Shown one piece after another: positions 2,236-54,797 of a DNA stretch of 64,000 nucleotides. How positions within the stretch are numbered: the stretch's first letter is position 1; the number at the start of each line of letters is the position of its first letter. The position numbers were made by a program, and so were the translations under genes. This DNA comes from Acidobacteriota bacterium (lineage in GTDB: Bacteria; Acidobacteriota; UBA890; WLXD01), in the NCBI GenBank assembly GCA_963666215.2, contig CAXWPL010000005.1:1546013-1610012 (forward strand), read 5' to 3'. The notes beneath the pieces are model-generated. The model was not told where the DNA came from. It saw only the letters and a list, made by a program, of their open reading frames with translations, and ran no database searches.

Positions 2236-3345
2236 GGCGTTGGTGCATGAATCGACTTCGGCCCCGACGGTAGCATTGGCTCGGGATCCCGACCATTCAT
2301 GGAGGGGGGCGATGCCATGGCCGCACGCAAGTCGAGCCGAGTCAACCGCGAGTACAAGACGAAGTACAGGGTCAGAAACTGGAGCGAGTACGAGTGTGGC
2401 CTCAGGAGCCGTGGCGATGTCACGATCTGGTTGAGCGAGGAGGCGATCGCTGCGTGGACGCCACAGAAGAACGGTCTGCGCGGAGGGCAGCGACGATACT
2501 CGAACCTCGCGATCTTGACCGGGTTGACGCTGCGCGCCGTGTTCCGCCTACCGCTTCGCCAGACCGAGGGATTCCTGGACTCGCTGCTGAGCTTGATGGG
2601 CCTGGACCTCAAGGCCCCAGACCACACCACACTCTCGCGCCGGAACCAGGACGTCGAGGTGCCACCCCTGACCCGAGCCCAGGACGGCCCGATGCACCTG
2701 GTGGTCGATTCCACGGGGCTCAAGATCCTGGGTTCTGGCGAGTGGAACCAGCACAAGTACAAGGCATCGAGGAAGCGCCGGGACTGGCGGAAGCTGCACA
2801 GCGGAGTGGATGACGAGGGCTTCATCGTGGCGGCCGAGCTCACGGCGAGCAGCGAGGGCGACGCCTCCACGCTCCCTGATCTCCTCGCCCAGATCGAGGT
2901 TCCAATCCGGCGTTTCACGGCAGACGGGGCCTATGACCACAGGTCGATCTACGATCGGGTCGCGGCGGCCGGTACAGAGGACATCATGATCGTGATCCCA
3001 CCTCGTCGCTCGGCGGTGTGTGCGGGGCCCACGGACGGCCCGTGGGCGCAGCGAGAAGCGGCTCTTCAGAGGATTCGTGAGGTCGGACGACGAGAGTGGC
3101 AGAAGGAGTCGGGTTACCGACAGCAGGCTCGCGTTGAGAACGGGTTCTTCCGATACAAGTCACGGCTCGGAGGCGACCTGAAGGCGAGCAACAGCAAGGC
3201 GCAGACGAGAGAGGCCATGATCGGGTGTTTCACATCCTTAACCGGATGGCAGGGCTCGGCAGGCCAGAGTCCTACGCTGTGTCGTGACGGAATGGCTGGG
3301 AAAAGCGGCCCAGGCTCGCTCTGGGTCGAATCGTGCAACAGCGCC
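2236..3345 (+). mobile_element. IS5 family (IS903-like) insertion sequence
   Basis: Imperfect terminal inverted repeats GGCGTTGGTGCATGA (2236) and TCGTGCAACAGCGCC (to 3345) enclose a DDE transposase. Confidence 0.85.
2317..3287 (+). pseudogene. IS5 transposase with a frameshift near the 3' end (about 3228)
   Basis: YRVRNWSEY, LPLRQTEG, PDHTTLSRR, VVDSTGLK, WRKLH, ADGAYD, SGYRQQARVE; the usual tail HILNRMAGLGRPES continues in another frame. Confidence 0.8.
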
Positions 3346-4092
3346 CTAACGCGGTAACAGACGACCGACGAACGACTCGGCGAAGGACCCAGGAGGCGAC
3401 GGCGTCAGCTGCTCCGGGGCACAGATCTGTCGGATCGTGCCACCTTCGAGGATGGCTACCCGGTCGGCCAGGGCGCCGGCCTCGTCGGGATCGTGGGTGA
3501 CCAGAAGCGTCGGCACCTGGCGCTCGGCAAGCAGCTCACGCACCAAACCGATGAGCTGTTCCTTCAGCGCGATGTCCAGACTCCCAAAAGGCTCGTCAAG
3601 CAGCAGAGCTGTTGGCTCGTAGACCAAAGCGCGCGCCAGAGCTACCCGCTGACGCTCGCCTCCAGACAAGTCTCCAGGGTAGGCGCGACCTCGGTCGCCC
3701 AGGCCCACTCTTTCCAGCCACTCATCCACCAGCACGTGTCGATCGGACCTCTTGAAGCCCTTGGCCGAGAGCACGAACCCGAGATTGCGCGCGACGGTGA
3801 GGTGCGGCCACAGAGCCAGATCCTGAAAGACGACGGCGAGGTTCCTCTCCTCCGGAGGAACGAGAATCCGCGCGCCTCGGCTCACCTCGCGTCCCGCGAT
3901 ACGGACGACACCCTGGCGCGGCCGAGCTAGACCGAGCACGGCACGCAAGAGAGTCGTCTTGCCAGTTCCCGAGGCTCCCGCCACCGCGACCACCTCGCCT
4001 TGCGCGACGGCGAGCGAGAGATCGTGGACGACGGCCCTAGTGCCGAATGCGAGCTCGAGGCCCTCGATCTGGAGAACGGTCGATTCTTTCAC
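3346..4092 (-). CDS. Fe3+/polyamine-type ABC transporter ATP-binding protein
   Basis: GASGTGKTT, LSGGERQRVALARAL, LLLDEPF; GTG start overlaps the permease stop. Confidence 0.9.
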   Translation of the reverse strand: MKESTVLQIEGLELAFGTRAVVHDLSLAVAQGEVVAVAGASGTGKTTLLRAVLGLARPRQGVVRIAGREVSRGARILVPPEERNLAVVFQDLALWPHLTVARNLGFVLSAKGFKRSDRHVLVDEWLERVGLGDRGRAYPGDLSGGERQRVALARALVYEPTALLLDEPFGSLDIALKEQLIGLVRELLAERQVPTLLVTHDPDEAGALADRVAILEGGTIRQICAPEQLTPSPPGSFAESFVGRLLPR

Positions 4093-7668: not shown

Positions 7669-8475
7669 AGCATTGTCAACTTGGCCTTGGCCGAGGCGAG
7701 ATCTGGCGTCATCAAGGGTTGGTCGGCTCGGATTCAGCGGGCGCACGTCACCTGCCGCCAGACGCCGAAAGAACGATCTCTCAGCGTACGGTGGTCGCCT
7801 GCGCTCACGAGATGCCGCCCGACGCGGAAAAGGTTCCGGATGACTCCGTGAGCGGAGAGGAATCGCTGCGCCTGGCCGGGCGACTTGAAGCGGCGCATCT
7901 TTCGCTCTCGCTGCCGGGTCGGCTGATGGGAGACCTCAGCCCGATTGTTCGCGTACTGGCTCGTATCGTGCCTGACGGAGGGCATGGTGGTCCGATGCGC
8001 TGCGCCATAACTCCTCAGCTTGTCGGTCACCAGGAGCACCGGTTCTGCCCCTTGGCCCTTCAAGAGCTTGCGGAAGAAGCGTTCCGCTGCTTTTCGATCA
8101 CGGCGTGGCTGCACGAGGATGTCGATCACACCTCCGTCCTGATCGATGGCACGCCAAAGATACTGCCGCTGGCCCTGGATATTCACGAAGACTTCGTCCA
8201 AGAACCACGTGTCACCGAGTCGGCCGCCTCGCCGCTTCAAGTTGCGGGCGTACTCGGTGCCGAACTTCCGGCACCATTGACGGATGGTCTCGTAGGAGAC
8301 GACGATTCCTCGCTCCGCCAGAAGATCCTCGACGTCGCGAAGGCTCAGGCAGAAGCGATGATAGAGCCAGACTGCGTGAGTGATGATCTCGGGCGGAAAC
8401 CGGTGACCGCGGTAGCTGGGCGTGCTGCTTTTCATGGGCCGACTCTGCCACCCATCGGCTCAACCTGACAGTACC
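7669..8475 (-). mobile_element. IS6 family insertion sequence
   Basis: Ends AGCATTGTCAACTTG (7669) and CAACCTGACAGTACC (to 8475) around an IS6 transposase. Confidence 0.88.
7734..8435 (-). CDS. IS6 family transposase
   Basis: YRGHRFPPEIITHAVWLY, WFLDEVFV, YLWRAIDQDG, VTDKLRSY, NNRAEVSHQPTR. Confidence 0.93.
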   Translation of the reverse strand: MKSSTPSYRGHRFPPEIITHAVWLYHRFCLSLRDVEDLLAERGIVVSYETIRQWCRKFGTEYARNLKRRGGRLGDTWFLDEVFVNIQGQRQYLWRAIDQDGGVIDILVQPRRDRKAAERFFRKLLKGQGAEPVLLVTDKLRSYGAAHRTTMPSVRHDTSQYANNRAEVSHQPTRQRERKMRRFKSPGQAQRFLSAHGVIRNLFRVGRHLVSAGDHRTLRDRSFGVWRQVTCAR

Positions 8476-8802: not shown

Positions 8803-9951
8803 CTACAGATCGAAGGGCGCCAGGAAGTGCCACTTGTCCCGAGTCTCGCCGGCATTCTTGATCGCTTCGCGCGAATCCAGAATCGCCTTGCCGGCAAGCG
8901 TCTTATGGAAGAACCAGCGTGTCGCCTCGTACGCTTCCGGCGTGTGGTCGGCAAGCGCGATGGCGGCCATCTCGTAGTAGCCGCGGATATCCTGGGCGAC
9001 ACGGGCGGGAATGCCCGGGATACCCGCTTTCTTCCAGTGGGTTCCCTCGGCGCAGCGGGCAAAGGCCCCGACCGCCTCGGGGATCTGGTCGGCGTCCACC
9101 GTCCGACCGGTGCCCACCGCGTTTCCCCAGTCCGAGACGGCGCGATCGTAGGCGCCGCGAATGCCGAGTGCCTCGTCGACCGCGGGGTGCGCGTCGGGGT
9201 CGTGGCGCGGCGGCAGCGGGCACGCCAACGCGGTCTCGCCGTCATCGATGATCGTGTCGGGAAAGTCCTCGATGGTCTGCTCGCTGACGCGATCAACCAT
9301 GCTCAGCGCCTGCCATAGAACGTGGTGCTGGAATTCGGCATCATTGGGCCGCCCCAGAGGACGGCCGAGCGGGAAGTTGCAGTAGAGACCGCGCGGCGCC
9401 GCGGTGCCCTCGAGCTGAGCTCGGATCGAGCCCAGAGTCACGGTTGCCATTCCGGCCGCTTCGAAGGCGTGTGCCAGCGTACTCACGGTACGCGTACAGA
9501 TCTGTCAGACAGGGGTCAGCAGCACGACGTCGACGCCGGCCTCTCGCAGGATCTTCGCCCCGGCCGGTCCGCTGTCGAGCTGGATGCCCGAGAGCTGAGG
9601 TTGGTTGCCGGCAAACGCCATGTGCACATCCGAGACATGCCCGATCTTGCCCTCGGACTCGAGCTCGCGAAGGCGATCGATGGGGAAAACCACGTTGTGG
9701 TCCAGAGCGAAGCCGGTGCTATCGAGGCCGGGACTCCAGTGGCTCAGCACCAGATCATCGCGACGGCCGTCGAGCAACCGGAACGAGATGTCGTGAGGGG
9801 CGTAGTTGTCCTGGTCCGGATGCCGCAATGTCGCCGAGGAGACGATCGCGACCGTGGACTCGGAAAGTGGCTTCGCTGTCGTGAAAACTGGATTCTCGGG
9901 GGGCAGGCACTCCAGCCCCGCCGTCATCGCCTTGAGCTCTTGATCTCCCAT
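8803..9951 (-). CDS. Glycine/sarcosine/betaine/D-proline reductase selenoprotein B-like protein, Sec at TGA 9505-9507
   Basis: ORFs 9505..10029 and 8803..9486 are in frame across one TGA: VDVVLLTPV-U-QICTRTVSTLAHAFEAAGMATV; DHNVVFPIDRLRELESEGKIG and NFPLGRPLG are family motifs. Confidence 0.88.
9476..9493 (-). promoter_or_regulatory. Candidate bacterial SECIS hairpin
   Basis: GCGUAC-CGUGA-GUACGC stem-loop; the loop begins 17 nt after the UGA and has G at position 2. Confidence 0.65.
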
Positions 9952-10019
9952 GGCACTAGCTATAGCTAGTCTACTCCTCGGGAGGGGCTCGACGCTAGTA
10001 GGTAGAATCGCCCAGCAGC

Positions 10020-10275
10020 ATGACTTCATCGAGGCGACACACTTTCACCGCCTTCGCGCTGGCGCCGCTTCTCGCCGCGACCGTCTTCGCCTATGAGCCA
10101 CCACGAACCGCCGACGGCAGACCCGACCTGCAGGGAGTCTGGACCAACTCGTCTCTGACCGGATTGTCGCGCCCGCGAGGGATCGACAAACGGGTGCTGA
10201 GCCCAGACCAGGCCGAGCAGTTGGCTGCTGGCCATTTTCACAACCTCCGCCTGGCCAAAGAGCTCGAGAAAGGGA
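10020..10275 (+). pseudogene. Truncated secreted protein (PRTADGRPDLQGVW-type N-terminus)
   Basis: Signal peptide then YEPPRTADGRPDLQGVWTNSSLTGLSRP; similarity appears to end after about 80 aa. Confidence 0.55.
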
Positions 10276-10365
10276 TAGGCGTTTCCTTGGGCGCCAGGCA
10301 TCGTATCGGTTTGGTCGAGCGAACGCATGGGCAGCTCGACGCCGTAATGCGCGGCTCGACGCGCG

Positions 10366-10624
10366 CCGAGCGGCGTGATTAGCAGGTAATGGCGCCGCTA
10401 TGGCAGCTATGCCGTGCGCGGCGCGGCGCATTGGCTGAACTCGGCTGAGCTAGTGCACAGCTCTGCCACGCCGATGGAATGAGGATCAGCTCACTGGCTA
10501 GGGAGTCGTGCGGTCGCTGCCGGCGCCGATGACCTTCGAGCACGAGGGCAAACAGTACATCGTCGTGGCCTTCGGCGACCGCACGACGAAGCCCGAGTTC
10601 ATCGCCTTCGTGCTCAGGACCTAG
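10366..10624. repeat. About 260-bp direct repeat, copy 1, containing the tail of a PQQ-dehydrogenase-like gene
   Basis: Near identical to 12439-12703; encodes APMTFEHEGKQYIVVAFG. Confidence 0.9.
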
Positions 10625-10759
10625 TAGGCGTCTGCGCGGCAGGAAACGAAACCGCACCAGTGCCCCCACTCTTCCGCCTTCCCGCGTGGTTTCTAGAATA
10701 CCCATCCCTATCGCTACGTCGCCCTTCTTGCCTCGCGCCCAGGCTCATATAATCCAGCG

Positions 10760-12438: not shown

Positions 12439-12703
12439 CCGAGCGGCGTGATTAGCAGGTAATGGCGCCGCTATGGCAGCTATGCCGTGCGCGTCGCGTC
12501 GCACTCGCTGAACTCGGCTGAGCTAGTGCTAGTGCACAGCTCTGCCACGCCGATGGAATGAGGATCAGCTCACTGGCTAGGGAGTCGTGCGGTCGCTGCC
12601 GGCGCCGATGACCTTCGAGCACGAGGGCAAACAGTACATCGTCGTGGCCTTCGGCGACCGCACGACGAAGCCCGAGCTCATCGGCTTCGTGCTCGGGACC
12701 TAG
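12439..12703. repeat. About 260-bp direct repeat, copy 2
   Basis: Matches 10366-10624 with about 7 substitutions and an extra CTAGTG. Confidence 0.9.
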
Positions 12704-12851
12704 AGGAGCGTGTCCGAGTGTTCCTTCTGAGCCGTTCCCCGGAGCGAATAGGAAGCACCGCCCGGGTGCGCCGTCCTCGGCGCCAAAAGGCAACTAGCCG
12801 GGGCGCGCCTAGCGCAGGAAATGATAGCCATCATTTCCTGCGCTAGGCTAG
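12700..12851 (+). repeat. CTAG-bounded REP-like module, type A
   Basis: GGAGCGTGTCCGAG...GCGAATAGGAAGCA...GCGCCGTCCTCGGCGCCAA...; ends in a perfect 19-bp-arm palindrome at 12807-12848; similar to 19805-19935 and 32443-32574. Confidence 0.85.
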
Positions 12852-14533
12852 TTCTCGAAGCCGATCGGCTCGATGTTGCAGATCGAGTAGGTCAACGGCG
12901 GGCGAGGACCCCAAAGCGGCTCGACCGTGATCGATCGCCAGTCTTCGATCTCCTCCTCGAGCGACTGGATCACCTCGGGGCGCTCACCCGCGAGGTTGTT
13001 CTGTTCGCGCACGTCCACAGATAGGTCGTAGAGGAAGCCCAGGGGCTCATCCTGGTTGGGCTTGATGAGCTTCATATCGCCCTGGCGAACCGCAATGGCC
13101 GGAGACATGCGGAATACCAGACGGTCGTGATGCGAACCCCCACCCCCTTCCTCGAACAGCGGCAGGAGATTGTGACCGTCGAGGGCGAGACCCTCGGGCG
13201 CGGTCTGCCCCGCGGCGGCGATTGCGGTTGGCAGGATGTCGAGTGAAGACACCGGCGTGCTCACCCGGCTACCCGCTTCGATCGCCTGTGGCCACCGCAT
13301 CAAGAACGGCACTCGCACGCCGCCCTCGTAGAAGGTGGCCTTGCCGCCCGAAAGCGGCTCGCAAGAGCACAGTCCCGGGACATAGCCTGCGCAGCCGTTA
13401 TCGCCGAGGAAAACGACGAGGGTGTTGTCGGCAAGACCGTTCTCCTCGAGAGTGTCGAGGATGCGCCCGACCGCATCGTCGAGGGCAGCGATCATCCCGA
13501 AGTAGATGCGCAGGAGCTCGTTTTTCTGGTCCGGAAAGCGGTCGTAGTGCTCCTGGGTGACTTGAAAGGGCGAATGCGGCGCATTGAACGCGGACTAAAG
13601 AAAAAAGGGCTCGTCTTTGTGCCGGCTGATGAAGTCGACCGATCTCTCACCGAATACGTCGGTGATGTACTCCGCCACTTCGCGGACCGTCCTCTCGGGC
13701 CCTTCGACGATTTGGTTGCCTCCGCTTCGGTTGGGCGGAGAGAGGGGCTCGCTTCCACGAACGAGGAGATCAGTGCGCGGGTCTTCAGGCGGTCTGGCAC
13801 GAAGTTCGTCGTCGAACGCCATCGAATGAACCCCTTGCGAGAGCACATTGACGAATTGCGTTGCTCCCGAGAGATGACCGTAGAACTCGTCGAAGCCGCG
13901 ATGGGTCGGATAGTGTTCGTCTTTGAAACCGAGGTGCCACTTGCCAACGATGCCGGTCGCGTAGCCGGCGCGCTTGAGATGATCGGCGATCGTCAGCTCA
14001 CCGGCGATGAGGCCGACATCAGGCACCTCGGGTGACTCGCGAGCGTTGTGCTCGAAGCCATAGCGCTGCTGGTAACGACCGGTCATGAGGGCCGCGCGCG
14101 AAGGCGAGCAAACCGGCGTGGTCACATAGCCCTGCTCGAAGATCGCGCCCTCTTTGCCGATGCGATCGATGTTGGGTGTCGCCACCCGGTCGCCGTAGGT
14201 CGAGATGTCGGCATAGCCGAGATCGTCGGCGAGGATCACGATGATGTTCGGTTGACGTGCCGGCTCCGGAGCCTGGGCTCTCTCCGCCGCTGAGGGATCC
14301 GACCCCTCGTTTGCGCAGGCGCTCAAGGCCAACGCGACAAGACATATCAACCCTAGACCAGCGTTTCCGAAGTTCGCGCCACCTATCTCGGCCCCTTCTG
14401 CCCGCTGGCAGCGTTGCACCTCCTCGACAGATTCCCAATATGCCTGCGTCGGCGCGCCTTGCCAGCGAACAGAATGACCTCGAGCTATGCGACTCGAACT
14501 TCGGAAACGCTGGTCTACTGTCAGCGTTCTCAT
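12848..14533 (-). pseudogene. Arylsulfatase-family lipoprotein with an in-frame TAG (13595-13597) and a MITE in the signal peptide
   Basis: PNIIVILADDLGY, CSPSRAALMTGRY, GKWHLG, EPFFL*SAFNAPHSP, GDNG, YEGGVRVP; both ORF halves are in the same frame. Confidence 0.85.
14356..14515. mobile_element. 160-bp MITE with TA target duplication
   Basis: Perfect 21-bp terminal inverted repeats GACCAGCGTTTCCGAAGTTCG / CGAACTTCGGAAACGCTGGTC, each flanked by TA. Confidence 0.85.
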
Positions 14534-16280: not shown

Positions 16281-16448
16281 GGCTCGGCGCGCGTTCTGGC
16301 GCGCTGTGTAGGCAGGCTAGCCCCGACAGATGCTTGCCGCAGTGCCGTAAAGCATCACCTTCCTTCGTCGTCGTCGGGGTGACCGGGGGGATACTAGGAA
16401 AATACAAGCCCTGTGTGGCACGATGAGGCTATCAACCGGGGGAGTACC

Positions 16449-17726
16449 ATGGACCAGCGCAAGGTCATCGCGAATCAAATTGCAGCGGTTGGGGAGACAG
16501 TCTTGTCGGCTTATGTGCCTCCCCCGCAACGCACGAAAGGGCAGCCGGCACCCATCGCTGCGAACGGAGGTTTGTCCTACATGTCGCTCGATCGGGGCGG
16601 GGATGCAGGAACTGCGGCGGCGACGGAGGCGGCGTTCACCCAGATTGCCGAGGGGCACGGGCGGGCGGTTATCGACATGCTCGACAACGCTCCCCCCGGA
16701 CCCATCGAGACCAAGTGGGGCGCCGGGTTTCGTCGCTACGCAGAGTGCCTGGAATATATTAGGGCGAACAACATCGAAGCTCCTGAAGGCGGCCTCGCTC
16801 TTCCGCTGCGCTACACCGTCCACGAGCAGCCGTCCTACTCCATCGTCTCGTCCAACGCCCTCTGGCGGGACCCGGCGCGTGAGGCCGAGGCAGAAGCATT
16901 GCGCAAGGAGGAGAAGGACATCGGGCGGCGATGCCTCTATTTTCCGCAGGTGATGCGCGATGCTCGACGAGTGGAGGAGTACTACCCAGGTCTGAAGCCG
17001 ACCAGCCCCGAGTGTATGGACAAGCTTGGCCTCTCGCTGGCGCACTGCGAGTCCGAGTGCGCGAACTTCTACGACGCAGCGGAGGTGGAGCGCGTGTTCT
17101 ACCCGGAGATCGAGAAGCTCCTGCTGGAGTTTTTCCCGGGCGCGACGGATGCGTTCGTGTACAACCACGACGTATTCGACAAGGACTACCAGGGAGACCG
17201 CACCGAGGACCAGGACAACAAGAACCCCGGTGTGAACGCCAACTACGCCAACCTCGTGCACAACGACTTGAACGACAACAGTGGTCGCATGCGCTGCCGC
17301 GAGCTGCTAACCAAGAACCTGCGAAACTTCGGGCGCGAGCAGCGCTATACGGAAGAGCAGGCCGACGCGAAGATGTCGCGGCGCTTCATGTCGATCAACC
17401 TCGCCAAGCCGATAGAGACTGTGCGTCAGAACCCTTTCGTGCTCTGCGCCTGGCCCTCTTTCGTCGACCAGCCGTACATCACCAACTACCGCGTCTACGA
17501 TGACCGCGTCGGCGAGACCACCCGCTTCACCTACCACCCAGACCACGAGTGGTACTGGTTCCCCCAGCAGACGCCCAGCGAGGTCTCGATGCTCAAGTGC
17601 TACGACTCTGTCACCGACGGCTCCGTCTCGCGCTGGTCTTTCCACACTGCCTGCATCGACCCGACCGCGCCCGACGATGCTCCCTGCCGCAGGAACGTCG
17701 TGGTCCGATCCTACGTCTTCTTCTAG
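16449..17726 (+). CDS. CmcJ/NvfI (AsaB-like) oxidoreductase with N-terminal extension
   Basis: ANLVHNDL, RFMSINLAKPI, HEWYWFPQQTPSEVSMLKCYDS, FHTACIDP...RRNVVVR; GGAG upstream of the ATG. Confidence 0.75.
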   Translation: MDQRKVIANQIAAVGETVLSAYVPPPQRTKGQPAPIAANGGLSYMSLDRGGDAGTAAATEAAFTQIAEGHGRAVIDMLDNAPPGPIETKWGAGFRRYAECLEYIRANNIEAPEGGLALPLRYTVHEQPSYSIVSSNALWRDPAREAEAEALRKEEKDIGRRCLYFPQVMRDARRVEEYYPGLKPTSPECMDKLGLSLAHCESECANFYDAAEVERVFYPEIEKLLLEFFPGATDAFVYNHDVFDKDYQGDRTEDQDNKNPGVNANYANLVHNDLNDNSGRMRCRELLTKNLRNFGREQRYTEEQADAKMSRRFMSINLAKPIETVRQNPFVLCAWPSFVDQPYITNYRVYDDRVGETTRFTYHPDHEWYWFPQQTPSEVSMLKCYDSVTDGSVSRWSFHTACIDPTAPDDAPCRRNVVVRSYVFF

Positions 17727-19739: not shown

Positions 19740-19804
19740 AGCGCTCGCTCCGGGCGCATGATGAGTGGGAACCAGCTCACTCAGCCGCTCCCCCAGCAGC
19801 ACGC

Positions 19805-19935
19805 CTAGCCTCCAGAAATGATTCCTATCATTTCCTGCGGCTAGTTGTCCTTTGGCGCCGAGGACGGCGCACTCAGGCGTTGCTTCCTATTCGCTCACGG
19901 AAACGGCTCAGGAAGAATACTCGGAACGCTCCTGG
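19805..19935 (-). repeat. CTAG-bounded REP-like module, type A (inverted copy)
   Basis: Reverse complement of 32443-32574 with scattered mismatches. Confidence 0.85.
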
Positions 19936-20046
19936 CCCAGTCAAAGCGACGCAGTCCGTGTCCGTCTGGGGCCGCTGGTATTGCGGTCTCGAGTCGGTTC
20001 ATGGGAGGTAGAATGCTCGACGCGAACCACCACCAAGGAGAGAACC

Positions 20047-21847: not shown

Positions 21848-24035
21848 TCAGAAATCGATCGGCAGATACCTGCCGGTGATCGAGTCCGGATCTCTCCGCA
21901 GGTTTGCTGGTGTCCCCTGTGCGATGATCCGACCTCCGTTCGCGCCTCCTTCCGGACCGAGCTCTATGATCCAGTCACATCTCGAAAGAACGACCGGATC
22001 ATGCTCGACGACGATCGCGGAGCTCCCGCTGCGGACCAGCTCGTACAGCAGCTCGATGAGTCGGGCCGTGTCGAAGAGGCTCAGGCCGGTCGTGGGCTCG
22101 TCGAGCACATAGAGCACGTTGCCCTTCCGCCGCCTGCCGAGCTCCTTCGCGATCTTGATTCTCTGAGACTCGCCTCCGCTCAGACTCGGCGTGGGTTGCC
22201 CGAGCCCGATGTAGCCCATGCCGATCCGATCCAGCAGTCCCAGCCTGGATCGGATCCCCTTGTCGTCCGCGAAGAACGAGACGGCCTCCGAGACGCGCAT
22301 CTCCAATACCTCGACGATCGTCTTTCCCCGATAGCGCGCCGACAGAGCTTCGTCGTTGTATCTCTTGCCCTCGCATTCCGGACAGGGGCTGTCGAGCCTG
22401 AGATTGCCACCCAGCAGGATCGTCTGACGGCCGCTGCCGCCGCACGCGGAACACGCCCCCTTCGAGTTGAAGGAGAAGTGGCCCGCAGACAGCTGGCGCG
22501 CGACCGCTTCCGGAGACGCCCGCTATCCCGACGAGGACTCCGAGTGGAAACGACACGGTCAGATCCTGGAGATTGTGGGTCCGGGCATGCCGGAGCGTCA
22601 GGCAGGGGATCAAATCGTTCAAGGCGTTCGCGGCTCCCGTCTCGGCACCGGCGAGAGCGGAATCGATGGACCGCGTCGGCATCTCGACCCGCCCGGAGAG
22701 ATACTGCCCGGTGATCGATTGGTCGCACCGGAGGAGGCCCTCGAAGTCACCCTGGTACACGACGCGTCCGCCTTCGATTCCCGCTCCCGGTCCCAGATCG
22801 ACGATCTGATCCGCCATCTCGATTGTGTTGCGGTCGTGCTCGACCACGATCACCGTGTTCCCCAGCTCCTTCAACGCGTTGATCCCGCGCAGCAGCTCGG
22901 CCTTCTCCGATTCGTGCAGCCCCACCGTGGGCTCATCGAGGATGTAGATCAGAGAGTCCATTCGTGAGTCGAGATGAGAGCTCAGGAACAGGCGCTGGAT
23001 CTCACCTCCGCTCAACGAAGGCATCTCCCTGTAGAGAGACAGATGGCCCAGGCGGGAATCGACCAGTGCACTCGTCTTGCGCAGGATCTCTGCCAGTAGG
23101 CTGGTTCCGTAGGACGTCAGCGCATTCCGTTTCGGCAGCGCTTGCAGCCAATCCCTGGTCTCGGTCAGGGTCATCTTCCCGAGAGCGCCGATATGCCTCC
23201 CGCCCAGCAGGACTCTGCGGGCTTCCTCGCCGACCCGGAACCCATCACAGCCCGAGCACACACGCAGCGCATAGATGCCGCTCGGGTCTTCGCCGTACTT
23301 GAGGACCCGACCTTCGAAGATCCGCGTCAGGCAGTAGCTGCGTCTCCGGGAATTGCTGTCGACATGGTGGCCATGGACGGCATCTTCCTTGACCTCATCC
23401 GGGAGCTCGGAGAAGGGCGTATCGAGGAAGTCACCAAACGACCTCAGCAGCAGCCTCGCATAACCGGGTGTCATTCCGAGCGAGTCGAAGACCTCCTTCA
23501 GTGTGGTGCACCGGTCCGGAACGAGGCGGTCCAGGTCGATCTCGTAGTACGCCCCCCGGCCGGAGCACTTCATGCACATGCCGTCGGGTGCGTTGTACGA
23601 GAAGCAGCGCGCCTCCAGGCGTTCTTCCGTTGTGCCGCAGGCGCCGCAGCTCAGGTCGTCATCCACCGGCGTGCCGCAGGAGGAGCAGGTGACCCCTCCT
23701 TCCGCGGCGTCGAGGACACCAAGCAGGCTCAGGATCCGGGTCCGCGAGCCGACCGTCGAGCGCGGATTGCTCTGGCGGATGATGCTCTGTTGCACCGCGA
23801 TCGTGGGTGCAAGGCCCGAGATCGTGTCGAACATGTCCTCGTCATCAAGTCCGGAGAGGATGCCCAGCGACCGCAGGTATTGCTTGCGTCCTTCCTCGAA
23901 GAGGATGTCGAATACGAGGCTGGACTTGCCCGAGCCGCTCACTCCGGTGACGACGATCAGCTGGTTCTTGGGGATCGAGACGTCGATGCCCCTGAGGTTG
24001 TGGGCCCGCGCGTTGGTGATCCGGATGTCGTGCAT
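21848..24035 (-). pseudogene. Short (class II) UvrA-like ATPase with an internal deletion and frameshift
   Basis: GVSGSGKSSL, LSGGEIQRL, LDEPTVGLH; the second Walker A GVSGSG joins directly to EAVARQLSAGHFSFNSKGAC in another frame; tail LSGGESQRIKIAKEL. Confidence 0.85.
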
Positions 24036-31455: not shown

Positions 31456-31472
31456 AGCACTTCCCATGCCAA
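31456..31472 (-). promoter_or_regulatory. Sigma54 -24/-12 promoter of the desaturase-GH3-enolase operon
   Basis: TTGGCATGGGAAGTGCT has exact GG-N10-GC spacing just upstream of the first gene. Confidence 0.65.
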
Positions 31473-31567
31473 CTCGGCGGCAGAGCCATGGCTCTGCCGC
31501 TGAGGGCGCCCTCGCTTCGCACGCACACTCCGGTCTACAATCACTCATCGACCCAAGAGGAGAGCGT

Positions 31568-32359
31568 ATGCAGTCAGTGACGGCTCAGGTCCGATATCTC
31601 AACCCTGATTGGAGAGGTCGCAGCGAAATGCCTCGCATCGGCGATCGCGAGTCGCGGCATGCCAACACCAGCAAGCGCGCGGTCGACATCTTCGACGCAC
31701 GGGGCATGGACCTCGGCCTCGACTCGGCAGGCTTCATGCTCACCAAGCACCGATCGAAGGTCGGAGACTTTCACCAGGATGGGGAAGTCCGCGCCACTTA
31801 TTACGTCGAGATCGCTCGTCTACTCCAAGAGCTCACCGGGGCGGAGCATGCCCTCATCCTCCAGCATGTCGTTCGGACCGAGGACACCAGCGACTTCAAC
31901 AAGGCCTACGCGCGCTTCGTTCACTGCGACTACTCGGTCAGAGATGCTCGAGGAAACGCCGAGAGAACCTTGCTCGCTCACGGCTTGGAGCTGACTCCGT
32001 CCCAGCAATGGGAATTCGCCTGGTTCAACACCTGGCAGCCGATCGAGCGCGAAGTGCTCAAGAATCCGCTGGCGATGATCGACGCAAGAACTCTCTCGTT
32101 CGACGACGTTGTCGACTATGAGTACAGTGGGTACGGAGAGCCGGTGCGCAGCTCGATGCCGGCCTTCAATCCGGACCACAAGCTCTATTTCTTCCCGCGA
32201 ATGCAGACCGACGAAGTGCTCGTGATGAAGCAGCTCGACACGCGACTCGACCGCGCCAGGCTGTGTCCGCACACTTCCTTCGACATCGACGCGCCGGCGG
32301 ACGCGCCGGGCCGCCGCAGCATCGAAGTAAGGATCATGTGTGCCTTTCGTAAACGCTAG
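31568..32359 (+). CDS. CmcJ/NvfI (AsaB-like) oxidoreductase
   Basis: IFDARG...LDSAGF, ARFVHCDYS, NTWQPI, PLAMIDA, FPRMQTDEVLVMKQLD, PHTSF, RRSIEVR. Confidence 0.85.
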   Translation: MQSVTAQVRYLNPDWRGRSEMPRIGDRESRHANTSKRAVDIFDARGMDLGLDSAGFMLTKHRSKVGDFHQDGEVRATYYVEIARLLQELTGAEHALILQHVVRTEDTSDFNKAYARFVHCDYSVRDARGNAERTLLAHGLELTPSQQWEFAWFNTWQPIEREVLKNPLAMIDARTLSFDDVVDYEYSGYGEPVRSSMPAFNPDHKLYFFPRMQTDEVLVMKQLDTRLDRARLCPHTSFDIDAPADAPGRRSIEVRIMCAFRKR

Positions 32360-32581
32360 GAGCGTGTCCGAGAATTCGGACAGGCGAGTAGTTCTCAGGC
32401 GGGGATGGGCCGGAGAACGGGCCGCAGGTCCGTTCTCCGGGGCTAGGAGCGTGTCCGAGTATTCGTCCTGAGCCGTTTCCGTGAGCGAATAGGAAGCAAC
32501 GCCCAAGTGCGCCGTCCTCGGCGCCAAGAGACAACTAGGCGGAGGAAATGATAGCCATCATTTCTGGAGCCTAGGAGCGTG
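32356..32581 (+). repeat. Array of CTAG-bounded modules (B, A, start of an interrupted B)
   Basis: CTAGGAGCGTG at 32356, 32443 and 32571; internal hairpins TGTCCGA..TCGGACA and CCGGAGAACGG..CCGTTCTCCGG. Confidence 0.88.
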
Positions 32582-32894: not shown

Positions 32895-33932
32895 TTAGGC
32901 AGCAGCGAGCAACGGCTTGGGCTCGAAGGCGCGCTTACGGGTCCACACGGCCCAGACAATGCGGGCCAACTTGTTGGCGAGGGCAACGGCGGCTTTGTTG
33001 GATCCTCGGCGGGTATCGACGTGCAGCGCCCACTGTTGGAGGCGGCCTTGGGGTTGTTTTCTCTTCGCCCACGACAGCACGGAGCGGGCCCCGTGGATCA
33101 GGAGCGTGCGCAGATAGCCGTCGCCGCGTTTGCTGATGCGTCCGAGCCAGCGTCGTGCGCCACTGGAGTGTTCGCGCGGCGTGAGCCCGAGATAGCTGGC
33201 AAGATGGCGTCCGCTCTTGAAGCGAGAGACATCTCCGATCCAGGCCACCAGGGCCGTGGCGGTCAGGACCCCGATGCCAGGAATGGTCATCAGCAGCTGC
33301 ACGGCTTCGAGCTGTTTGGCGAGCGCTTGGATGTGGTTGTCGATCTCCGCGATACGCTCGTGGAACTGCTCGATCTGATCGCATTGCGCTGCGAAGTGAG
33401 GGCGCAATGCCATGGGGATGTCCGTCTCGGCGTCGGCGATCAGCTCTCGGACCCTCGGCACGACGCGCGCACGTCCTAGAGGGATGAAGTGTCCGAATTC
33501 TCGCAAGTGCCCGCGTAGAGCGTTGCAGTGAGCCGTACGATCGCCGATGTAGGCCGCGCGCATCCGATGCAGAGTGGTGAGCGTTTGTTGCTCGAGCGAC
33601 TTGACAGGGACAGGCAGGATGTCTTCGTTGCGATACGCCTCGAGCATGCCTTTGGTGTCGGTTCGATCGGTCTTGTGGGCGCCGACATAGCGGTGGGTCA
33701 GGTGGGGTGGCAGCAGGACGACCGAGTGGCCGAGCTCTCCTATTTCCCGGCCCCAGTAGTGCGCGGAGCCACAGGCCTCCATGACCACCGTCGTGGGCTT
33801 GCGTTGTGCGAAGAAAGACAAAAAGCCAGCTCTTCGGACTCGATGCCGGTCCGCCACCTTTCCCGGCTCATGCGACACGGCGATCTCGAACACATCCTTG
33901 GCCAGGTCGACACCGATAACGGTATGCTTCAT
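32895..33932 (-). CDS. IS110-family DEDD recombinase
   Basis: IGVDLAK, VVMEACG, KTDRTD, TIPGIG, GLTPREHSSG, GRISKRGD, VALANKLARIVWAV. Confidence 0.95.
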   Translation of the reverse strand: MKHTVIGVDLAKDVFEIAVSHEPGKVADRHRVRRAGFLSFFAQRKPTTVVMEACGSAHYWGREIGELGHSVVLLPPHLTHRYVGAHKTDRTDTKGMLEAYRNEDILPVPVKSLEQQTLTTLHRMRAAYIGDRTAHCNALRGHLREFGHFIPLGRARVVPRVRELIADAETDIPMALRPHFAAQCDQIEQFHERIAEIDNHIQALAKQLEAVQLLMTIPGIGVLTATALVAWIGDVSRFKSGRHLASYLGLTPREHSSGARRWLGRISKRGDGYLRTLLIHGARSVLSWAKRKQPQGRLQQWALHVDTRRGSNKAAVALANKLARIVWAVWTRKRAFEPKPLLAAA

Positions 33933-34020
33933 GGGGCTCCCTTCCAGTACTAGAGTTTCGGTTTGGGCGACCCGCGGCACACAGATGCCGATCGAAGTCG
34001 CCAGGGAGTCCATTTCATCA

Positions 34021-34099
34021 TCCGAGTATCGGACAGGCGAGTAGTTCTCAGGAGGGGATGGGCCGGAGAACGGGCCGCGGGCCCATTCTCCGGGGCTAG
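34021..34099 (+). repeat. Distal part of the type B module interrupted by the IS
   Basis: TCCGAGTATCGGACAGGCGAGTAGTTCTCAGG...CTCCGGGGCTAG matches 32367-32446. Confidence 0.88.
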
Positions 34100-35322
34100 G
34101 TGGAGCTCTGCCGTTTAAAGGAGCTGGAGCGGCGCAGCCAGAGGACTACTGAACCGACCGCGAGACCCATGACGGCCAAAGCCGTCCGCTCGCCCAAGAC
34201 GTCGGCAAGATAGCCGATCGGCAGTCCCATCAAACCGAAGCCGGCGAAAGAAAGCATGGTCAGCGACATCACTCGCCCCACGTATCTCGGCTCGGTCGCG
34301 CCTACGATCACGGCGCCGGCGAGAGTCTGGAAACCGCCACTGAACACTCCCGCCACGAAGACGATCACGGTAAGGCCGAAGAAGCTCGGGGCGGCGGCGA
34401 CGGCCAATAGACTTAGGGCGAACCCCAGGGCCATCAGTGAGAAGAGAGCGGGGGAGCGGGGAGAGTCGGCGTAGCGCGCAACCACCACGCTCGCCGTCAG
34501 AGCACCGAGAGCAGTGACTCCGAATTGCACACTCGAAGACTCGGTGGGCAAGCCGAGCTGGTTCTGTACAAAGCCAGGCAATAGGGTGATGTATGGAAAG
34601 CCGAGGATGATGACAAGCGTAAAGAGGAGCATGAGCGGGCGCAGCTGGGGGTGATCACGCACGTAGCGAAGGCCGGCGAGGATGTCATCGAGTAGACGGG
34701 CTCGGGACGCGCCGCTAGACACGACGGATCGCGGGAGCAAGCCCAGGCTCAGAACCGAGATCAGGTAGAGAACGCCCATCACGATGTAGGCGGCCCACAC
34801 TCCGTCGGTCGACCACGCCAGAAAAGCCCCCGCAACCGCTGGGCCGAGCACCCTGCATCCACTATTCGCGACCTGAGTCAGTGCTATTGCGTTGCCTCGG
34901 CGTGCCTTTCCGACCAGCTCCACCGCCAGTGACTGGCGCGCCGGGCCCATGAACGCGAAGGAAGTGCCCATCACCGCCGAGCCCATCATCAGCCAACCAA
35001 TCTGGATGCGCTCGCTGGCGATACCCCACGCGATCCAAAAGAAGACCGACATCGTCAACAGCTGGCAGACTGCGATCACCCGGCGCTTGGGCCAGCGATC
35101 GGCAAGCGCGCCGCCCAGAGGGGCGAGGGTGAACATCATGATGCCCTGCGAGAAGACCACAAACCCCACGGCTCGGTTCTGCCCGGTGAGCTCAAAGGCC
35201 ACCACACTCTGGGTAACCATCGACATGAAAAAGGCGACGAAGGCGAAAATCGTTCCGATCCACAGGATGCGGAACGGGCGAACGGAGAGCGCCGCAAAAG
35301 TCTGTCTCAGATGTCCAGGCAC
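34096..35322 (-). CDS. MFS transporter
   Basis: About 12 TMs; GGALADRWPKRR, GPARQSL, GRVMSL. Confidence 0.88.
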   Translation of the reverse strand: MPGHLRQTFAALSVRPFRILWIGTIFAFVAFFMSMVTQSVVAFELTGQNRAVGFVVFSQGIMMFTLAPLGGALADRWPKRRVIAVCQLLTMSVFFWIAWGIASERIQIGWLMMGSAVMGTSFAFMGPARQSLAVELVGKARRGNAIALTQVANSGCRVLGPAVAGAFLAWSTDGVWAAYIVMGVLYLISVLSLGLLPRSVVSSGASRARLLDDILAGLRYVRDHPQLRPLMLLFTLVIILGFPYITLLPGFVQNQLGLPTESSSVQFGVTALGALTASVVVARYADSPRSPALFSLMALGFALSLLAVAAAPSFFGLTVIVFVAGVFSGGFQTLAGAVIVGATEPRYVGRVMSLTMLSFAGFGLMGLPIGYLADVLGERTALAVMGLAVGSVVLWLRRSSSFKRQSST

Positions 35323-36958: not shown

Positions 36959-38360
36959 GCGCGGTCGGGCGCTGGTGGCAGAGGCTCGCCCAGGCTGACG
37001 CGCCGCCTGTCGCCGCCGAGGCGGACGAGCACGATTACGCAACTCTCGACGCCATTCGCGAGATGGAGAAGGGGTTGCTCCCCATGGCTGACACTGAGCT
37101 AGTGCTAGTCGAGTGAGCCGGCACCCTTCGACCTCGATGAGTACGCGAACAACATCTTCCTGACTAATCCCGGCATCGCAGTGGCGGATGTTTGCTGCAA
37201 TGCGGGAACCTCTTCGGCGCCGACAACATTCAGCTGCAGGCCGAGCTGCGCAACGCACTTCACGTCGAGTCTCTACTGCAGCGGGACGTTGATTACATCG
37301 TGCGAGAGAAACGCATCGAGCTCGTCGACGAGCTCACCGGCCGTGTTGCAAAAGATCGCCACTGGGCCGACGGAATTCAAGCGGCACTCGAGGCAAAGGA
37401 AGGCCTGTTCTTGGGCCACGAGGGACAGGTTCTCGGCTCGATCACGGTCCAGCACTTCTTGCACAAGTACCCGCAGCTTTGTGGCATGACCGCCACTGCG
37501 AAGACCGCTGTGCCTGAGCTCGCCGAAGTCTATGGCCTGACGGTGCAAAGGATCGCAACCAACCGAGCCTGCGCCCGAATCGACGCTCCCGACCTCATTT
37601 TCCGAAGCCAGGAGAGCAAGCGCCCTGCGTTGGTCGATGCGATCTCCTGCGCTCACCGCCGTGTGCAGCCTACGCTGGTCGGCACCCTCAGTGTCAGAGA
37701 GTCCGAAGAGCTGGCCGGTGAGCTCGAGCGCGCCGAGGTACCCTGTCGCGTCCTCAACGCCAAGAGGGACGAAGAGGAGGCCTCGATCATCGCCGAGGCC
37801 GGAGCGCCGGGCGCGGTGACGATCTCTACCAATATGGCAGGGCGAGGCACCGATATCCGCCTCGGAGGGTCAAACGAGAGTGAGCGAGACCAGGTGTTGG
37901 CTGTCGGCGGCTTGGCGGTCTTTGGCACCAACCGACACGAGAGCCGTCGCATCGACGACCAGCTGCGCGGGCGAGCCGGTCGACAAGGCGATCCAGGCTC
38001 TTCTCGCTTCTTCGTCAGTCTCGAGGATCCGCTACTCCGGCGCTATGGCATCGAGCGACTGCTTCCCTCACGGAGCGCCGAGGCGCTCGATCACCCCATT
38101 GTTGCGCGGGAAGTCGCACGCGCGCAGCGCATCATCGAGGGGCAGCACGCCGACGCCCGCACCCGCCTGGTGCGCTACGAGCAGGTCCTGGAGCGGCAGC
38201 GCTCGGAGCTCCAGGGGCGGCGTCAGGCTGTCCTCGAGGGCAGAGAAGACTCGGGCCTGGTGGCGAAGCTCAGCCCGGAGCGGTGGCGCGAGCGTCGATT
38301 GGCTTCCGCAAGGGAGAAGTCGTAGAATGCCACGGCGAACCTACGGGAAGCCTCCTCGGG
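36955..38360 (+). pseudogene. Degraded SecA paralog (SecA2-like)
   Basis: VDELTGR, ALEAKE, GMTATA, VLNAK, STNMAGRGTDIRLG, HESRRIDDQLRGRAGRQGDPGSSRFFVSLED; most of the first nucleotide-binding domain is missing after about 37105. Confidence 0.8.
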
Positions 38361-40268: not shown

Positions 40269-41016
40269 TTGAGCGCTACATTCTGGTGGATCCTCGGCAG
40301 CGGGCTTGTGATGAGCTCGTTTGCTCTCGTCGGCGCAGTCGGACTTCTGGTCGAGGAAAGGACCTTGCGCCGCTTCCTGCTGCCGCTAGTGGCGCTCGCC
40401 GCAGGCTCCCTTCTCGGCGGCGCCTTTTTCCACATGATCCCTGCAGGCGTGGATACTCTGGGCAACACGACGGCTCTCTGGGTCTGGGTAACGCTGGGTT
40501 TCGTTACCTTTTTTTGCTTCGAACAGTTTCTTCACTACCACCACTGCCACAGCGCTACCCACGACCACAGGCATCCGGTGGGGCACATGATTCTCTTCGC
40601 CGACACGCCACAACTTCGTCGGTGGTCTGGCGGTAGAGGGAGCTTTCTTGGTCGACACCCGGGTTGGGATCACGGCTTGGCTGGCTGCGGCCAGTCACGA
40701 GATCCCCCAGGAGCTTGGCGACTTTGGAGCTCTCGTTCACGCCGGCTGGAGTCGCCGCGCGGCGCTTCTTTTCAACGGGCTCTCCGGTCTCGGGTTTCTG
40801 GCCGGCGGCATGTCCACCCTATTGCTGTCCCGCGGTGCGGACGTCCGCTTCCTGGTCCCCTTTGCGGCCGGGAACTTCATCTACATTGCTTGTGCGGATC
40901 TGGTCCCGGAAATCAATCGACATGAAGATTGGCGCACCAATGTGCTTCATTTCCTCGCTTTTGCCAGCGGATTGGGGCTTCTCTTGGGCGTCAAATTGGC
41001 ACTTTCGCACTCTTAG
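40269..41016 (+). pseudogene. ZIP-family metal transporter, frameshifted at about 40608
   Basis: LAAGSLLGGAFFHMIP; ADT, shift, HNFVGG; HEIPQELGDFG; IACADLVPE. Confidence 0.85.
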
Positions 41017-52242: not shown

Positions 52243-53203
52243 GACCACCGACTCGGTGACCGTCGCCGAGGTCCTAGGAGAGGAGCTCCAAGGGCTGCAG
52301 CTCGAAATTCTGTGCGGGCGCGGGCATCTAGAGAACAGGATCACCAACCCTAGAGTGCAGAAGCCCGGACTGGCTTTCGCCGGTCACTACCCCTACATCA
52401 AGCCGGGTCGGGTGCAGATTATCGGTGAGAGCGAGCTCGCCTATCTTCACACTCTGGATCCGGCGGAGCGTTTCGAGCGCTTTCGAGCGATCACCGCTCT
52501 TCCGGTGCCGCTTTTCATTGTCACCAAGGGGCTCGATGCTCCCCCGGAGTTTCTCGACCTGTGCCGCGAGAGAGAAGTGCCGGTCTTCAGGTCACCAAGA
52601 CTCTCATCGGTGGTGATCAAGCGGGTTGGCTACTTCCTCGAGGAGCATCTCGTCCCGTCGACAACGGTTCACGGTGTGCTGATGGACGTCTTCGGCTTGG
52701 GAGTCCTTCTCATTGGGCGTAGCGGAGTCGGCAAGAGCGAGTCGGCGCTCGATCTCATCACGCGCGGTCATAGTCTGATCGGCGACGACCGGGTTCGTAT
52801 TCGCCGCTACCCCAACGACGAGCTGATGGGAGACTGCGCGGAGCCGCTGCGGCATCATATGGAGCTGCGCGGAATCGGCATCATCAACGTCAAAGACCTT
52901 TTCGGGCTGGCGGCGGTGCGCTCCCGTAAGGCGATCGATCTGGTAGTCGAGCTGGAGCGCTGGGAGCCCGGCAGAGCCTACGACCGCCTCGGCCTCGAAG
53001 AGAGTGTCTACCGGATCCTCGATTCGCCTTGCCCCTATCTTCGAATGCCGGTGGCGCCGGGTCGCAACGTCGCCATTCTGGTCGAGATCGCGGCTCGCAA
53101 TCACGTGCTGAAACTTCAGGGACACTTCTCGGCGCACGAGTTCGCGCGCTCTCTGGAGGAGGAGCTCGAGCGAAAGCGCTCGGTCAAGCGCAAGCCGGCA
53201 TGA
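52235..53203 (+). CDS. hprK: HPr kinase/phosphorylase
   Basis: HGVLMDVFGLGVLLIGRSGVGKSESALDLITRGH, ELRGIGI, PGRN. Confidence 0.95.
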   Translation: MSETTDSVTVAEVLGEELQGLQLEILCGRGHLENRITNPRVQKPGLAFAGHYPYIKPGRVQIIGESELAYLHTLDPAERFERFRAITALPVPLFIVTKGLDAPPEFLDLCREREVPVFRSPRLSSVVIKRVGYFLEEHLVPSTTVHGVLMDVFGLGVLLIGRSGVGKSESALDLITRGHSLIGDDRVRIRRYPNDELMGDCAEPLRHHMELRGIGIINVKDLFGLAAVRSRKAIDLVVELERWEPGRAYDRLGLEESVYRILDSPCPYLRMPVAPGRNVAILVEIAARNHVLKLQGHFSAHEFARSLEEELERKRSVKRKPA

Positions 53204-54084: not shown

Positions 54085-54088
54085 AGGC

Positions 54089-54523: not shown

Positions 54524-54527
54524 GTCG

Positions 54528-54797
54528 ATGGTCGATGCCGAGTCTGAAATCGTCAATCGCCTCGGGCTTCATGCGCGAGCTGCAGCCAAGCTGGTTCAAA
54601 TGGCCTCCAGTTTCGAATCGGAGGTGTACCTCGTGAGCGATGCCGAGGAAGTCGACGCAAAGAGCATCCTCGGGATTCTGCTTCTGGCCGCGGCGCAGGG
54701 GATGAGGGTCACGGTTCGCTGTAGCGGAGTCGACGAGCTTGCGGCTCTCGAAGCGGTCACACGTCTGATCGCCGACGGCTTTGGAGAGGAGGGTTGA
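54528..54797 (+). CDS. ptsH: Phosphocarrier HPr
   Basis: GLHARAAA, DAKSILG. Confidence 0.93.
   Translation: MVDAESEIVNRLGLHARAAAKLVQMASSFESEVYLVSDAEEVDAKSILGILLLAAAQGMRVTVRCSGVDELAALEAVTRLIADGFGEEG

Follow-up and report, generated by a model that had tools for sequence, protein, structure and literature searches.

A selenoprotein gene on the minus strand

The window analyzed here is the whole stretch of 64,000 nucleotides, and the gene under study occupies its minus strand from 9951 to 8803. With the in-frame TGA read as selenocysteine (Sec, U), the gene encodes 382 amino acids with a single recoded codon, U149, in the context LLTPV-U-QICTRTVS (motif U149-x-x-C152). Translation by table 11 gives two ORFs, 9505-10029 and 8803-9486, in place of this one chain. 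The original prediction, that two ORFs join in frame via TGA 9505-9507 into a 382-aa protein containing TPV-U-QIC, was reproduced on the minus strand, a strand it had left unstated. The features of the gene are as follows.

8803-9951, minus strand: whole gene, 382 aa, Sec at codon 149; TAG stop at 8805-8803
9505-9507, minus strand: in-frame UGA, Sec149; TGA in 80 of 80 loci (the best 80 of at least 581), Cys in 56 of 77 full-length relatives
9477-9493, minus strand: bSECIS upper stem (6 bp) and CGUGA loop (9487-9483), codons 153-158, from comparative data and the bSECIS model
9496-9498, minus strand: Cys152 codon, invariant in Sec, Cys, and Gly forms
9256-9951, minus strand: PrdB/GrdB-like catalytic domain, residues 1-232, predicted Rossmann-like alpha/beta, from TIGR04483, PF07355, the structure model, and the fold search
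9697-9756, minus strand: loop-helix 66-85 (H71, S73, D77, D84), modelled as the surface on which the C-terminal domain docks, from the P0006 interface and conservation
9352-9375, minus strand: FPLGRPLG loop (193-200), a signature of the family that lies within the modelled interface
8806-9255, minus strand: predicted all-helical C-terminal domain, residues 233-382, with E260, D321-x-R323-x-x-Y326-E327, W346, T351, and G354

The closest relative among the matches listed lies in locus L001 on a Candidatus Multivorans chromosome (Acidobacteriota, Thermoanaerobaculia; 93% protein identity). Because DNA identity to L001 (88.6%) spans 9954 to 8803 only, the start was placed at ATG 9951 and the longer start at 10029 was dropped. 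No protein results from a plus-strand reading of 8803-9951, and a promoter scan for the selenoprotein gene found none.

Recoding of UGA149

A scan of GTDB genomes matched at least 587 stretches, at least 581 of which were confirmed; the best 80 were kept, so this set leans to close relatives. Codon 149 is TGA in all of these best 80 of at least 581 loci, with no further internal stop and with 231 to 248 open codons past the TGA. Together with the window's own gene they form a set of 81 Sec genes with pairwise protein identities of 56 to 100% (median, 69%). The internal TGA is present in 81 of 81 while the terminal stops vary (TAG in 37, TGA in 27, and TAA in 17), which argues against an ordinary stop and against a code in which TGA means Trp.

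Alignment of homologs at codon 149 had been proposed as a check. Besides the TGA in the 80 best of at least 581 loci, the 77 full-length database relatives had Cys in 56, Gly in 15, Ser in 2, and Ala, Leu, Arg, and a gap in 1 each; none had Trp. Homologs with Trp or Arg at this position, named in the original prediction as refuting it, are not the rule. The share of Cys is 29 of 32 in nearer relatives and falls to the above 56 of 77 once more distant relatives are included.

Gene callers split this protein. Of 371 database proteins aligned to the query, 207 start just past the site and 15 end there; 77 cover the whole protein, 24 cover the site but lack the extension, and the remaining 48 are fragments of other kinds. 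This split, together with a GTG at codon 156 that is retained in 76 of the 81 Sec genes (best 80 of at least 581 loci plus the window's), would favor two separate genes; a pseudogene or a TGA read as Trp might also be considered. We find any of these extremely improbable, since the TGA is internal in 81 of 81 genes yet also terminates 27 of them, the break sits within one domain, codon 156 is GTC in five genes, and Trp is found at position 149 in 0 of 77 full-length relatives. The original prediction had raised the concern that homologs might be encoded as two genes; the "two genes" of the databases break exactly at the TGA, and the recoding stands. The comparative sequence data indicate that UGA149 is almost certainly recoded as selenocysteine through the hairpin located 17 nt downstream, producing one 382-aa chain.

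No tRNA-Sec was found in the window or in the best 80 of at least 581 loci. Homologs of selA, selB, and selD were not detected by tblastn in the window, no sel gene was present in the same 80 loci, and Rfam gave 0 matches in the window. Indirect support for Sec machinery in the hosts comes from L014 and L043, two loci with a further selenoprotein-type gene that contains a TGA. According to the available part of one sponge study, SelA and SelB occur together in most bins (PMC5649159), and an excerpt of a report on Actinomarina describes Sec machinery in all genomes (bioRxiv 10.64898/2026.04.03.716425).

The SECIS hairpin is conserved

The predicted hairpin, GCGUAC-CGUGA-GUACGC, was located at 9493-9477, where a 6-bp stem carries a 5-nt loop that begins 17 nt past the UGA. 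A 48-nt stretch folds at -12.0 kcal/mol. Considered as a single sequence, this fold is within chance (z = -0.11; 85 of 200 shuffles of the 48 nt fold equally well). A comparable stem occurs at 86 of the 211 window TGAs that have long open frames on both sides, and 4 of these 211, the selenoprotein gene's among them, passed a hairpin-plus-Cys filter.

While the single-sequence fold is unremarkable, comparative data place the hairpin beyond chance. Codons 153 to 158, which coincide exactly with the hairpin, are the six least variable of 141 conserved degenerate sites in the 81 genes (best 80 of at least 581 loci plus the window's), with 0 to 0.47 bits as opposed to 0.98 for the next site and a median of 1.71. 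Among 61 distinct sequences, 98.6% of stem cells were paired. Two stem pairs vary on both sides (8 U-A→C-G and 1 A-U→G-C), and these compensatory changes entail an amino acid substitution at 158 or 155. The 9 compensatory cells were matched by 0 of 500 shuffles, a figure inflated by the kinship of the sequences. Residues 153 to 158 occur in 7 forms in the 81 Sec genes compared with 40 forms in 56 Cys proteins, as expected if the RNA constraint is lifted in the latter, although the Cys set is also more divergent.

A bacterial SECIS check had also been proposed. The bSECIS model, as quoted in the available part of PMC13188914, calls for a loop of 3 to 9 nt, a stem of 4 to 16 bp, a G in the first two loop positions, a spacing of 16 to 37 nt, and an MFE of ≤-7.5. 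The hairpin agrees with it in every respect (5-nt loop, 6 bp, 17 nt, and -12.0 kcal/mol).

Relationship to PrdB and GrdB

The PrdB model TIGR04483 matches residues 20 to 224 with an E value of 5e-35, scoring 121 bits against a curated cutoff of 300. PF07355 (GRDB) gives 28.3 bits, above its gathering score of 22. Scores for the GrdB, GrdF, and GrdH models (B subunits of glycine, sarcosine, and betaine reductase) are 42.5, 51.1, and 46.4 bits against cutoffs of 602, 800, and 775, and the subfamily model TIGR01918 gives 47.3 against 65.45. U149 aligns with the Sec and C152 with the Cys of PrdB, and 13 columns are invariant across PrdB and the single-chain family. The kinship to PrdB/GrdB proposed originally is supported by the TIGR04483 and PF07355 matches and by the aligned UxxC, but the protein is not PrdB itself.

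The full length of PrdB aligns to residues 20 to 224 at ~30 to 35% identity, and both proteins have a UxxC motif and a SECIS within the ORF, with Sec at 149 here and, according to an excerpt of PMC3091704, at 152 in Clostridium sticklandii PrdB. However, PrdB is ~240 aa long and ends past the core, whereas the family protein has 382 aa, 150 of them extra. The motifs TPV-U-xxC-TR and FPLGRPLG of the family stand in place of TAG-U-GTC-HR and PMGANAG of PrdB. PrdB is encoded in an operon with prdA (the pyruvoyl proprotein) and prdC/D/E/F, none of which lies near the family gene. The hosts differ as well: Bacillota for PrdB, and Acidimicrobiia, Gammaproteobacteria, Binatia, Entotheonella, and Multivorans for the family.

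In the GrdB group, it is the C-terminal half of the GrdB/GrdF/GrdH and FarB models that matches residues 74 to 226. These proteins have a long N-terminal part, Sec near position 350, and a UxxCxxC motif (available parts of PMC13188914 and PMC3091704), in contrast to UxxCTRTVS at 149 in the family, and no GrdE-like or GrdA gene was found near the family gene. GrdH/GrdI and FarB/FarE provide a precedent for Se attack without a pyruvoyl group (PMC10838667, seen in excerpt); FarB and GrdH keep a separate partner subunit, whereas the family protein is a single chain. GrdB-like proteins of ~300 aa (Haematobacter WP_035710215 and a paralogue in L014) share the core and the C/UxxC and also have no PrdA homologue nearby, but they are only ~29 to 30% identical, have a short, different C terminus, and form a separate branch. 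The L014 gene (1148-2101, plus strand) is a second, shorter GrdB-like gene in that locus. It has a TGA in frame (LVPV-U-PVCHQT) and a hairpin of its own whose loop is likewise CGUGA; it is 48% identical to the Haematobacter Cys protein and belongs to another partnerless subfamily.

A tree of the core domain was built from 84 rows: 32 of the 81 Sec genes, 24 database proteins of the family, 5 of a sister group, 4 PrdB, and 19 others. In this quick tree, which has a midpoint root and no GrdB rows, the family makes up one side of a branch with SH-aLRT 98 (56 rows), and PrdB makes up one side of another (100). That the Sec genes fall on one branch is a selection effect of using the best 80 of at least 581 loci, as the GOS file has Sec in other branches. 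We assign the gene, with a probability of about 0.85, to a clade of the GrdB/PrdB superfamily that is distinct, consists of single-chain proteins, and has no gene for a pyruvoyl subunit in its neighborhood.

Genomic neighborhood

Partner genes were sought by tblastn (E≤1e-3) with annotated PrdA, PrdD, PrdE, PrdF, and PrdC from four plasmid regions. No prdA, prdD, prdE, or prdC homologue was detected in the window, and PrdA, PrdD, and PrdE were absent from the window and the best 80 of at least 581 loci (1.33 Mb), 51 of which have flanks of at least 5 kb on both sides. The sole Prd match in these 80 was a weak one, of PrdC to a NuoF-like gene in L069. Pfam revealed no other Grd/Prd/Sel family among 104 window ORFs (chosen from 533 by a codon model) and no Grd/Prd partner in 383 of 403 neighbor-family representatives drawn from loci ORFs of at least 80 aa; left out were 2 target halves, 5 with ambiguous bases, and 13 window ORFs. 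The statement in the original prediction that the window has no prdA/grdE/grdA partner thus held by tblastn for PrdA and by Pfam (104 ORFs) for PrdA, GrdE, and GrdA, the latter two by Pfam only.

These data bear on whether the protein could be a genuine B subunit of D-proline (or glycine/sarcosine) reductase that has its PrdA/GrdE partner gene at a distant genomic site. TIGR04483 is its best family match, JGI calls several Cys forms "D-proline reductase PrdB," and the examined flanks span only about 10 kb per side. Nevertheless, this is very unlikely given the 121 bits against a cutoff of 300, the separate clade, and the position of prdA within 0.5 kb of prdB in 3 of 3 annotated regions compared with 0 of the best 80 of at least 581 loci. 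A fourth prdB region has an unannotated PrdA-like stretch directly upstream.

An MFS transporter gene follows on the same strand, no more than 600 bp downstream, in 29 of the best 80 of at least 581 loci, 28 of the 29 being Actinomycetota. Its best models are monocarboxylate and oxalate/formate transporters, below cutoff. The Acidimicrobiia often have a same-strand run of genes for a PhyH dioxygenase (23 of the same 80), an SDR (27), the family protein, the MFS transporter (29), and a fused protein of the indolepyruvate-oxidoreductase (IOR) family (28). In one Binatia locus, a 40% identical MFS occupies the same place. Because this neighborhood is almost all from Actinomycetota, it may be inherited gene order, and as a pointer to the substrate it is suggestive only. 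The PhyH and SDR neighbors indicate no specific substrate, and no gene for a dedicated reductant recurs near the family gene in the best 80 of at least 581 loci. A molybdopterin oxidoreductase gene directly follows the family gene in L012, L018, L027, L036, and L070; with family proteins 90 to 93% identical, this is probably a single event.

The window copy is without neighboring MFS, SDR, PhyH, and IOR genes, and its own neighbors are a transposase and sulfatases. The IS6-type transposase gene lies just downstream (7734-8435). Other transposase/integrase genes are at 2299-3357, 32895-34013, and 35-610, and the left half of the window has a mobile, decayed appearance.

The C-terminal domain

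AlphaFold2 modelled the full chain as two domains (pLDDT 97.3, pTM 0.94), and the extension alone as eight helices (pLDDT 91.2, pTM 0.87). In the fold search, the core gave only generic Rossmann/periplasmic-binding matches (best Z 9.1, rmsd 3.4, 136 aligned). No GrdB/PrdB relative was found among solved structures, the best E value in a PDB sequence search being 0.19. For the extension, the best match had Z 3.7 (rmsd 3.3, 72 aligned), and none of 48,161 chains reached Z≥5; the best Foldseek E value was 1.3, with none ≤0.001, and Pfam had no match at E≤1. The lack of a structural match is no proof of a new fold. No similarity to PrdA, PrdD, PrdE, or PrdC was found (hhalign to PrdA, probability 0.2%). 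The ~150 extra C-terminal residues of the original prediction were confirmed as residues 233 to 382 and as a family-wide feature, given the 231 to 248 open codons past the TGA in 80 of the best 80 of at least 581 loci. The structure prediction that it had proposed gave a confident all-helical domain without a PDB or Pfam match. Among 889 candidates, no longer fusions of the extension were found by a search that also missed known members of 400 to 458 aa.

The halves of P0006, a natural Cys homologue, were also folded as separate chains. They scored 0.85, as opposed to 0.00 for the best of 3 controls, with at least 98% of contacts agreeing between runs and a partner pLDDT of at least 90. Of solved pairs, 116 of 157 attained the docking mark, as did 2 of 215 mismatched ones; these counts are only roughly valid with a self-supplied alignment. 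Halves of one protein are an easy case, and no solved relative was found that could have been remembered. The modelled interface joins core residues 66 to 85 and the PLGR loop to the R323/E327 helix, the 337-344 loop, and the C terminus, which supports packing of the C-terminal domain against two loops of the catalytic domain, 66-85 and FPLGRPLG. Residues 149 to 153 are not among the named interface residues, so a direct cap over the UxxC is unsupported by the model.

A sister group (P0160, P0170, P0174, P0175, and P0184; 394 to 415 aa) has a divergent form of the same C-terminal domain, and similar Sec-read sequences are present in the GOS supplement, as far as it was available.

Conserved residues and possible chemistry

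Cys152 is invariant in the 81 Sec genes (best 80 of at least 581 loci plus the window's) and in the wider family (13 of 13 Sec forms, 53 of 53 Cys forms, and 14 of 14 Gly forms). Position 149 has no sulfur or selenium in 17 of 70 near-full-length database relatives (14 Gly, 2 Ser, and 1 Ala), so some members of the family can do without this atom. All 17 (P0280, P0284, P0291, P0293, P0294, P0297-P0299, P0301, P0302, P0305, P0306, P0308, and P0310, and further P0142, P0311, and P0314) have Cys157, compared with 12 of 53 Cys149 forms. They sit in about four lineages in a FastTree phylogeny, and are not 17 independent cases; the largest lineage is a clade with support of 99 that comprises 13 Gly forms and 1 Ala form. 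Hence, the constant element is C152 plus one partner, at 149 or 157. This pattern would fit a shifted nucleophile-resolver pair and a plain dithiol redox protein equally well.

Away from the motif, the polar residues H71, S73, D77, D84, N86, R187, and Q208 are invariant. Four Cys/Sec columns (149, 152, 191, and 244) are invariant in the same 81 Sec genes; in the wider family, C191 and C244 are retained in 44 and 49 of 53 Cys forms and in 9 and 7 of 14 Gly forms.

From sequence, we infer that the family protein is a reductase. By analogy, the chemistry of the superfamily may be kept, with reductive cleavage of a C-X bond by a selenolate; the bond would be pre-activated, and no pyruvoyl group would take part. 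We consider this to be plausible, at somewhat less than even odds. For PrdB, it was proposed that the selenol attacks the alpha-carbon of pyruvoyl-bound proline and that a PrdB cysteine cleaves the selenoether (excerpt of PMC3091704); the C-Se steps are called hypothetical in the available part of PMC10298544. Since no pyruvoyl subunit is encoded nearby, attack on a carbon activated by a leaving group would be the simplest carryover. The U149 selenolate would attack a carbon bearing a good leaving group (an onium, a halide, or the like, carried by a small carboxylate), which would pre-activate the carbon so that no Schiff base to a pyruvoyl group would be needed. C152 would then resolve the selenoether to a selenenylsulfide, to be re-reduced by a general cellular thiol or a thioredoxin-type system. 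The C-terminal domain might take on the stabilizing and substrate-capping job of the clostridial PrdA/GrdE pieces. The betaine GrdI and fluoroacetate FarE proteins are without pyruvoyl processing cysteines, and the far operon includes an MFS of the oxalate/formate-antiporter type (both from an excerpt of PMC10838667), the type whose models also score among the best for the MFS downstream of the family gene. Against C-X cleavage stand the Gly149 subclade, which has no sulfur or selenium at 149, the docked interface, in which the UxxC residues are not named, the extension, which is unlike PrdA, the largely actinomycetotal gene neighborhood, which may be inherited gene order, and the lack of a recurring reductant gene nearby.

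A general thiol-dependent oxidoreductase (a peroxidase or a sulfoxide or disulfide reductase), in which U149/C152 would be the redox pair and the C-terminal domain would set the target, is possible but doubtful. The pattern of C152 plus 149 or 157 fits a dithiol pair, and peroxiredoxin-like and DsbA-like genes flank the family gene in L050. Thiol oxidoreductases account for most abundant marine selenoproteins (PMC2398784, Table 2, available in part), and GrdB peroxidase activity appears in the title of a reference in the accessible part of PMC3091704. On the other hand, the fold is Rossmann-like, with a thioredoxin-fold chain in none of the 50 best rows; the seven invariant polar residues named above exceed the needs of a simple redox pair; and the transporter and catabolic neighbors point to a metabolite.

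We consider it unlikely that the protein detoxifies or binds soft electrophiles or metal(loid)s with U149, C152, and the likewise conserved C191, C244, and H161 as ligands or transfer sites. The four Cys/Sec columns that are invariant in the 81 Sec genes (best 80 of at least 581 loci plus the window's) would agree with such a role, and mycothiol-dependent (MDMPI/DinB, Rv2466c-like) genes adjoin in L022, L023, L050, and L072, an association without a background rate. However, C191 and C244 vary once the wider family is considered, and metal-resistance genes recur in no neighbor family found in two or more loci.

Distribution and earlier records

Judged from record titles, the hosts of the best 80 of at least 581 loci were 66 Actinomycetota (mostly Acidimicrobiia), 9 Gammaproteobacteria, 3 Binatia, 1 Entotheonella, and 1 Multivorans. 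The original prediction called the selenoprotein an orphan, which holds in that no partner is nearby; it is no one-off, as the family is large (at least 581 loci). In a quick tree, the protein encoded in the window is placed beside an Acidimicrobiales sequence (SH-aLRT 96), which suggests transfer without proving it.

Sec-read family members, such as JCVI_READ_1091141751968 and JCVI_READ_1092955404107, are contained in the available part of GOS supplement file 3 (PMC2398784), the latter including the extension to its C terminus. The string UPLCTR occurs 23 times in that file, and 14 of those places were examined. The recoding was therefore already predicted in 2008 and is not new. The GOS paper counts 235 "Proline reductase PrdB" selenoproteins, in the part of PMC2398784 available; the family members were apparently counted among them, the file headers being without a family label. 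The Sargasso set has 42 PrdB compared with one GrdA and one GrdB, and PrdA is never mentioned in the accessible portion of that paper (PMC1088965). In the available parts of both papers, the class is treated as PrdB, with no mention of a separate family, an extra domain, or a missing PrdA. The literature searched, which excludes most subscription papers, contained no description that sets the family apart or that mentions the extra domain or the missing partner.

PrdB-like genes are among the commonest marine selenoproteins and have been read as proline reduction, yet at least part of the class is something else. Pathway calls from "prdB" in sponge, marine, and freshwater MAGs are therefore unsafe. 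Most databases hold the family protein as two fragments, split or mislabeled. Speculatively, much of the abundant marine "PrdB" might not be proline reductase but a selenoenzyme that works on its own, needs no pyruvoyl group, and carries a new helical domain. It would reductively cleave C-N+, C-S+, or C-halogen bonds in a marine osmolyte or in an organohalide from sponges, and its hosts would be bacteria for which Stickland chemistry is not known. The subclade with Gly149/Cys157 would perform the same chemistry in a shifted catalytic register. If so, the protein would be the first single-chain, crystallizable model for the C-Se chemistry of a family without a solved structure. A one-chain version with natural Cys forms eases testing of the C-Se mechanism.

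Other features of the loci and the window

A gene for a UGSC-family selenoprotein (YGH-U-GSC) is located in L043 (132-716, minus strand), ~9 kb from the family gene. Two genes in the window, at 16413-17726 and 31466-32359, encode CmcJ/NvfI-family oxidoreductases. L001:11155-11438 is 91 to 92% identical to the first of these and lies directly downstream of the selenoprotein gene in convergent orientation.

A 3.2-kb repeat at 99.97% identity (window 52959-56201 and 60757-64000) contains the end of hprK, rapZ, and PTS genes, the second ptsI copy being cut to 220 aa; it is either an assembly artifact or a recent duplication. A single sulfatase gene sits between direct repeats of ~265 bp (95%; 10366-10628 and 12439-12706) that contain a 28-bp inverted repeat, and the first copy of the direct repeat starts at the end of a short divergent ORF (10020-10382). 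A second repeat family is found at 12704-12801, 19804-19938, 32367-32575, and 34021-34100. Apparently frameshifted or partial genes are located at 21848-24035 (UvrA-like ABC ATPase), 12848-14533 (sulfatase), 40269-41016 (ZIP transporter), and 37192-38325 (SecA fragment).
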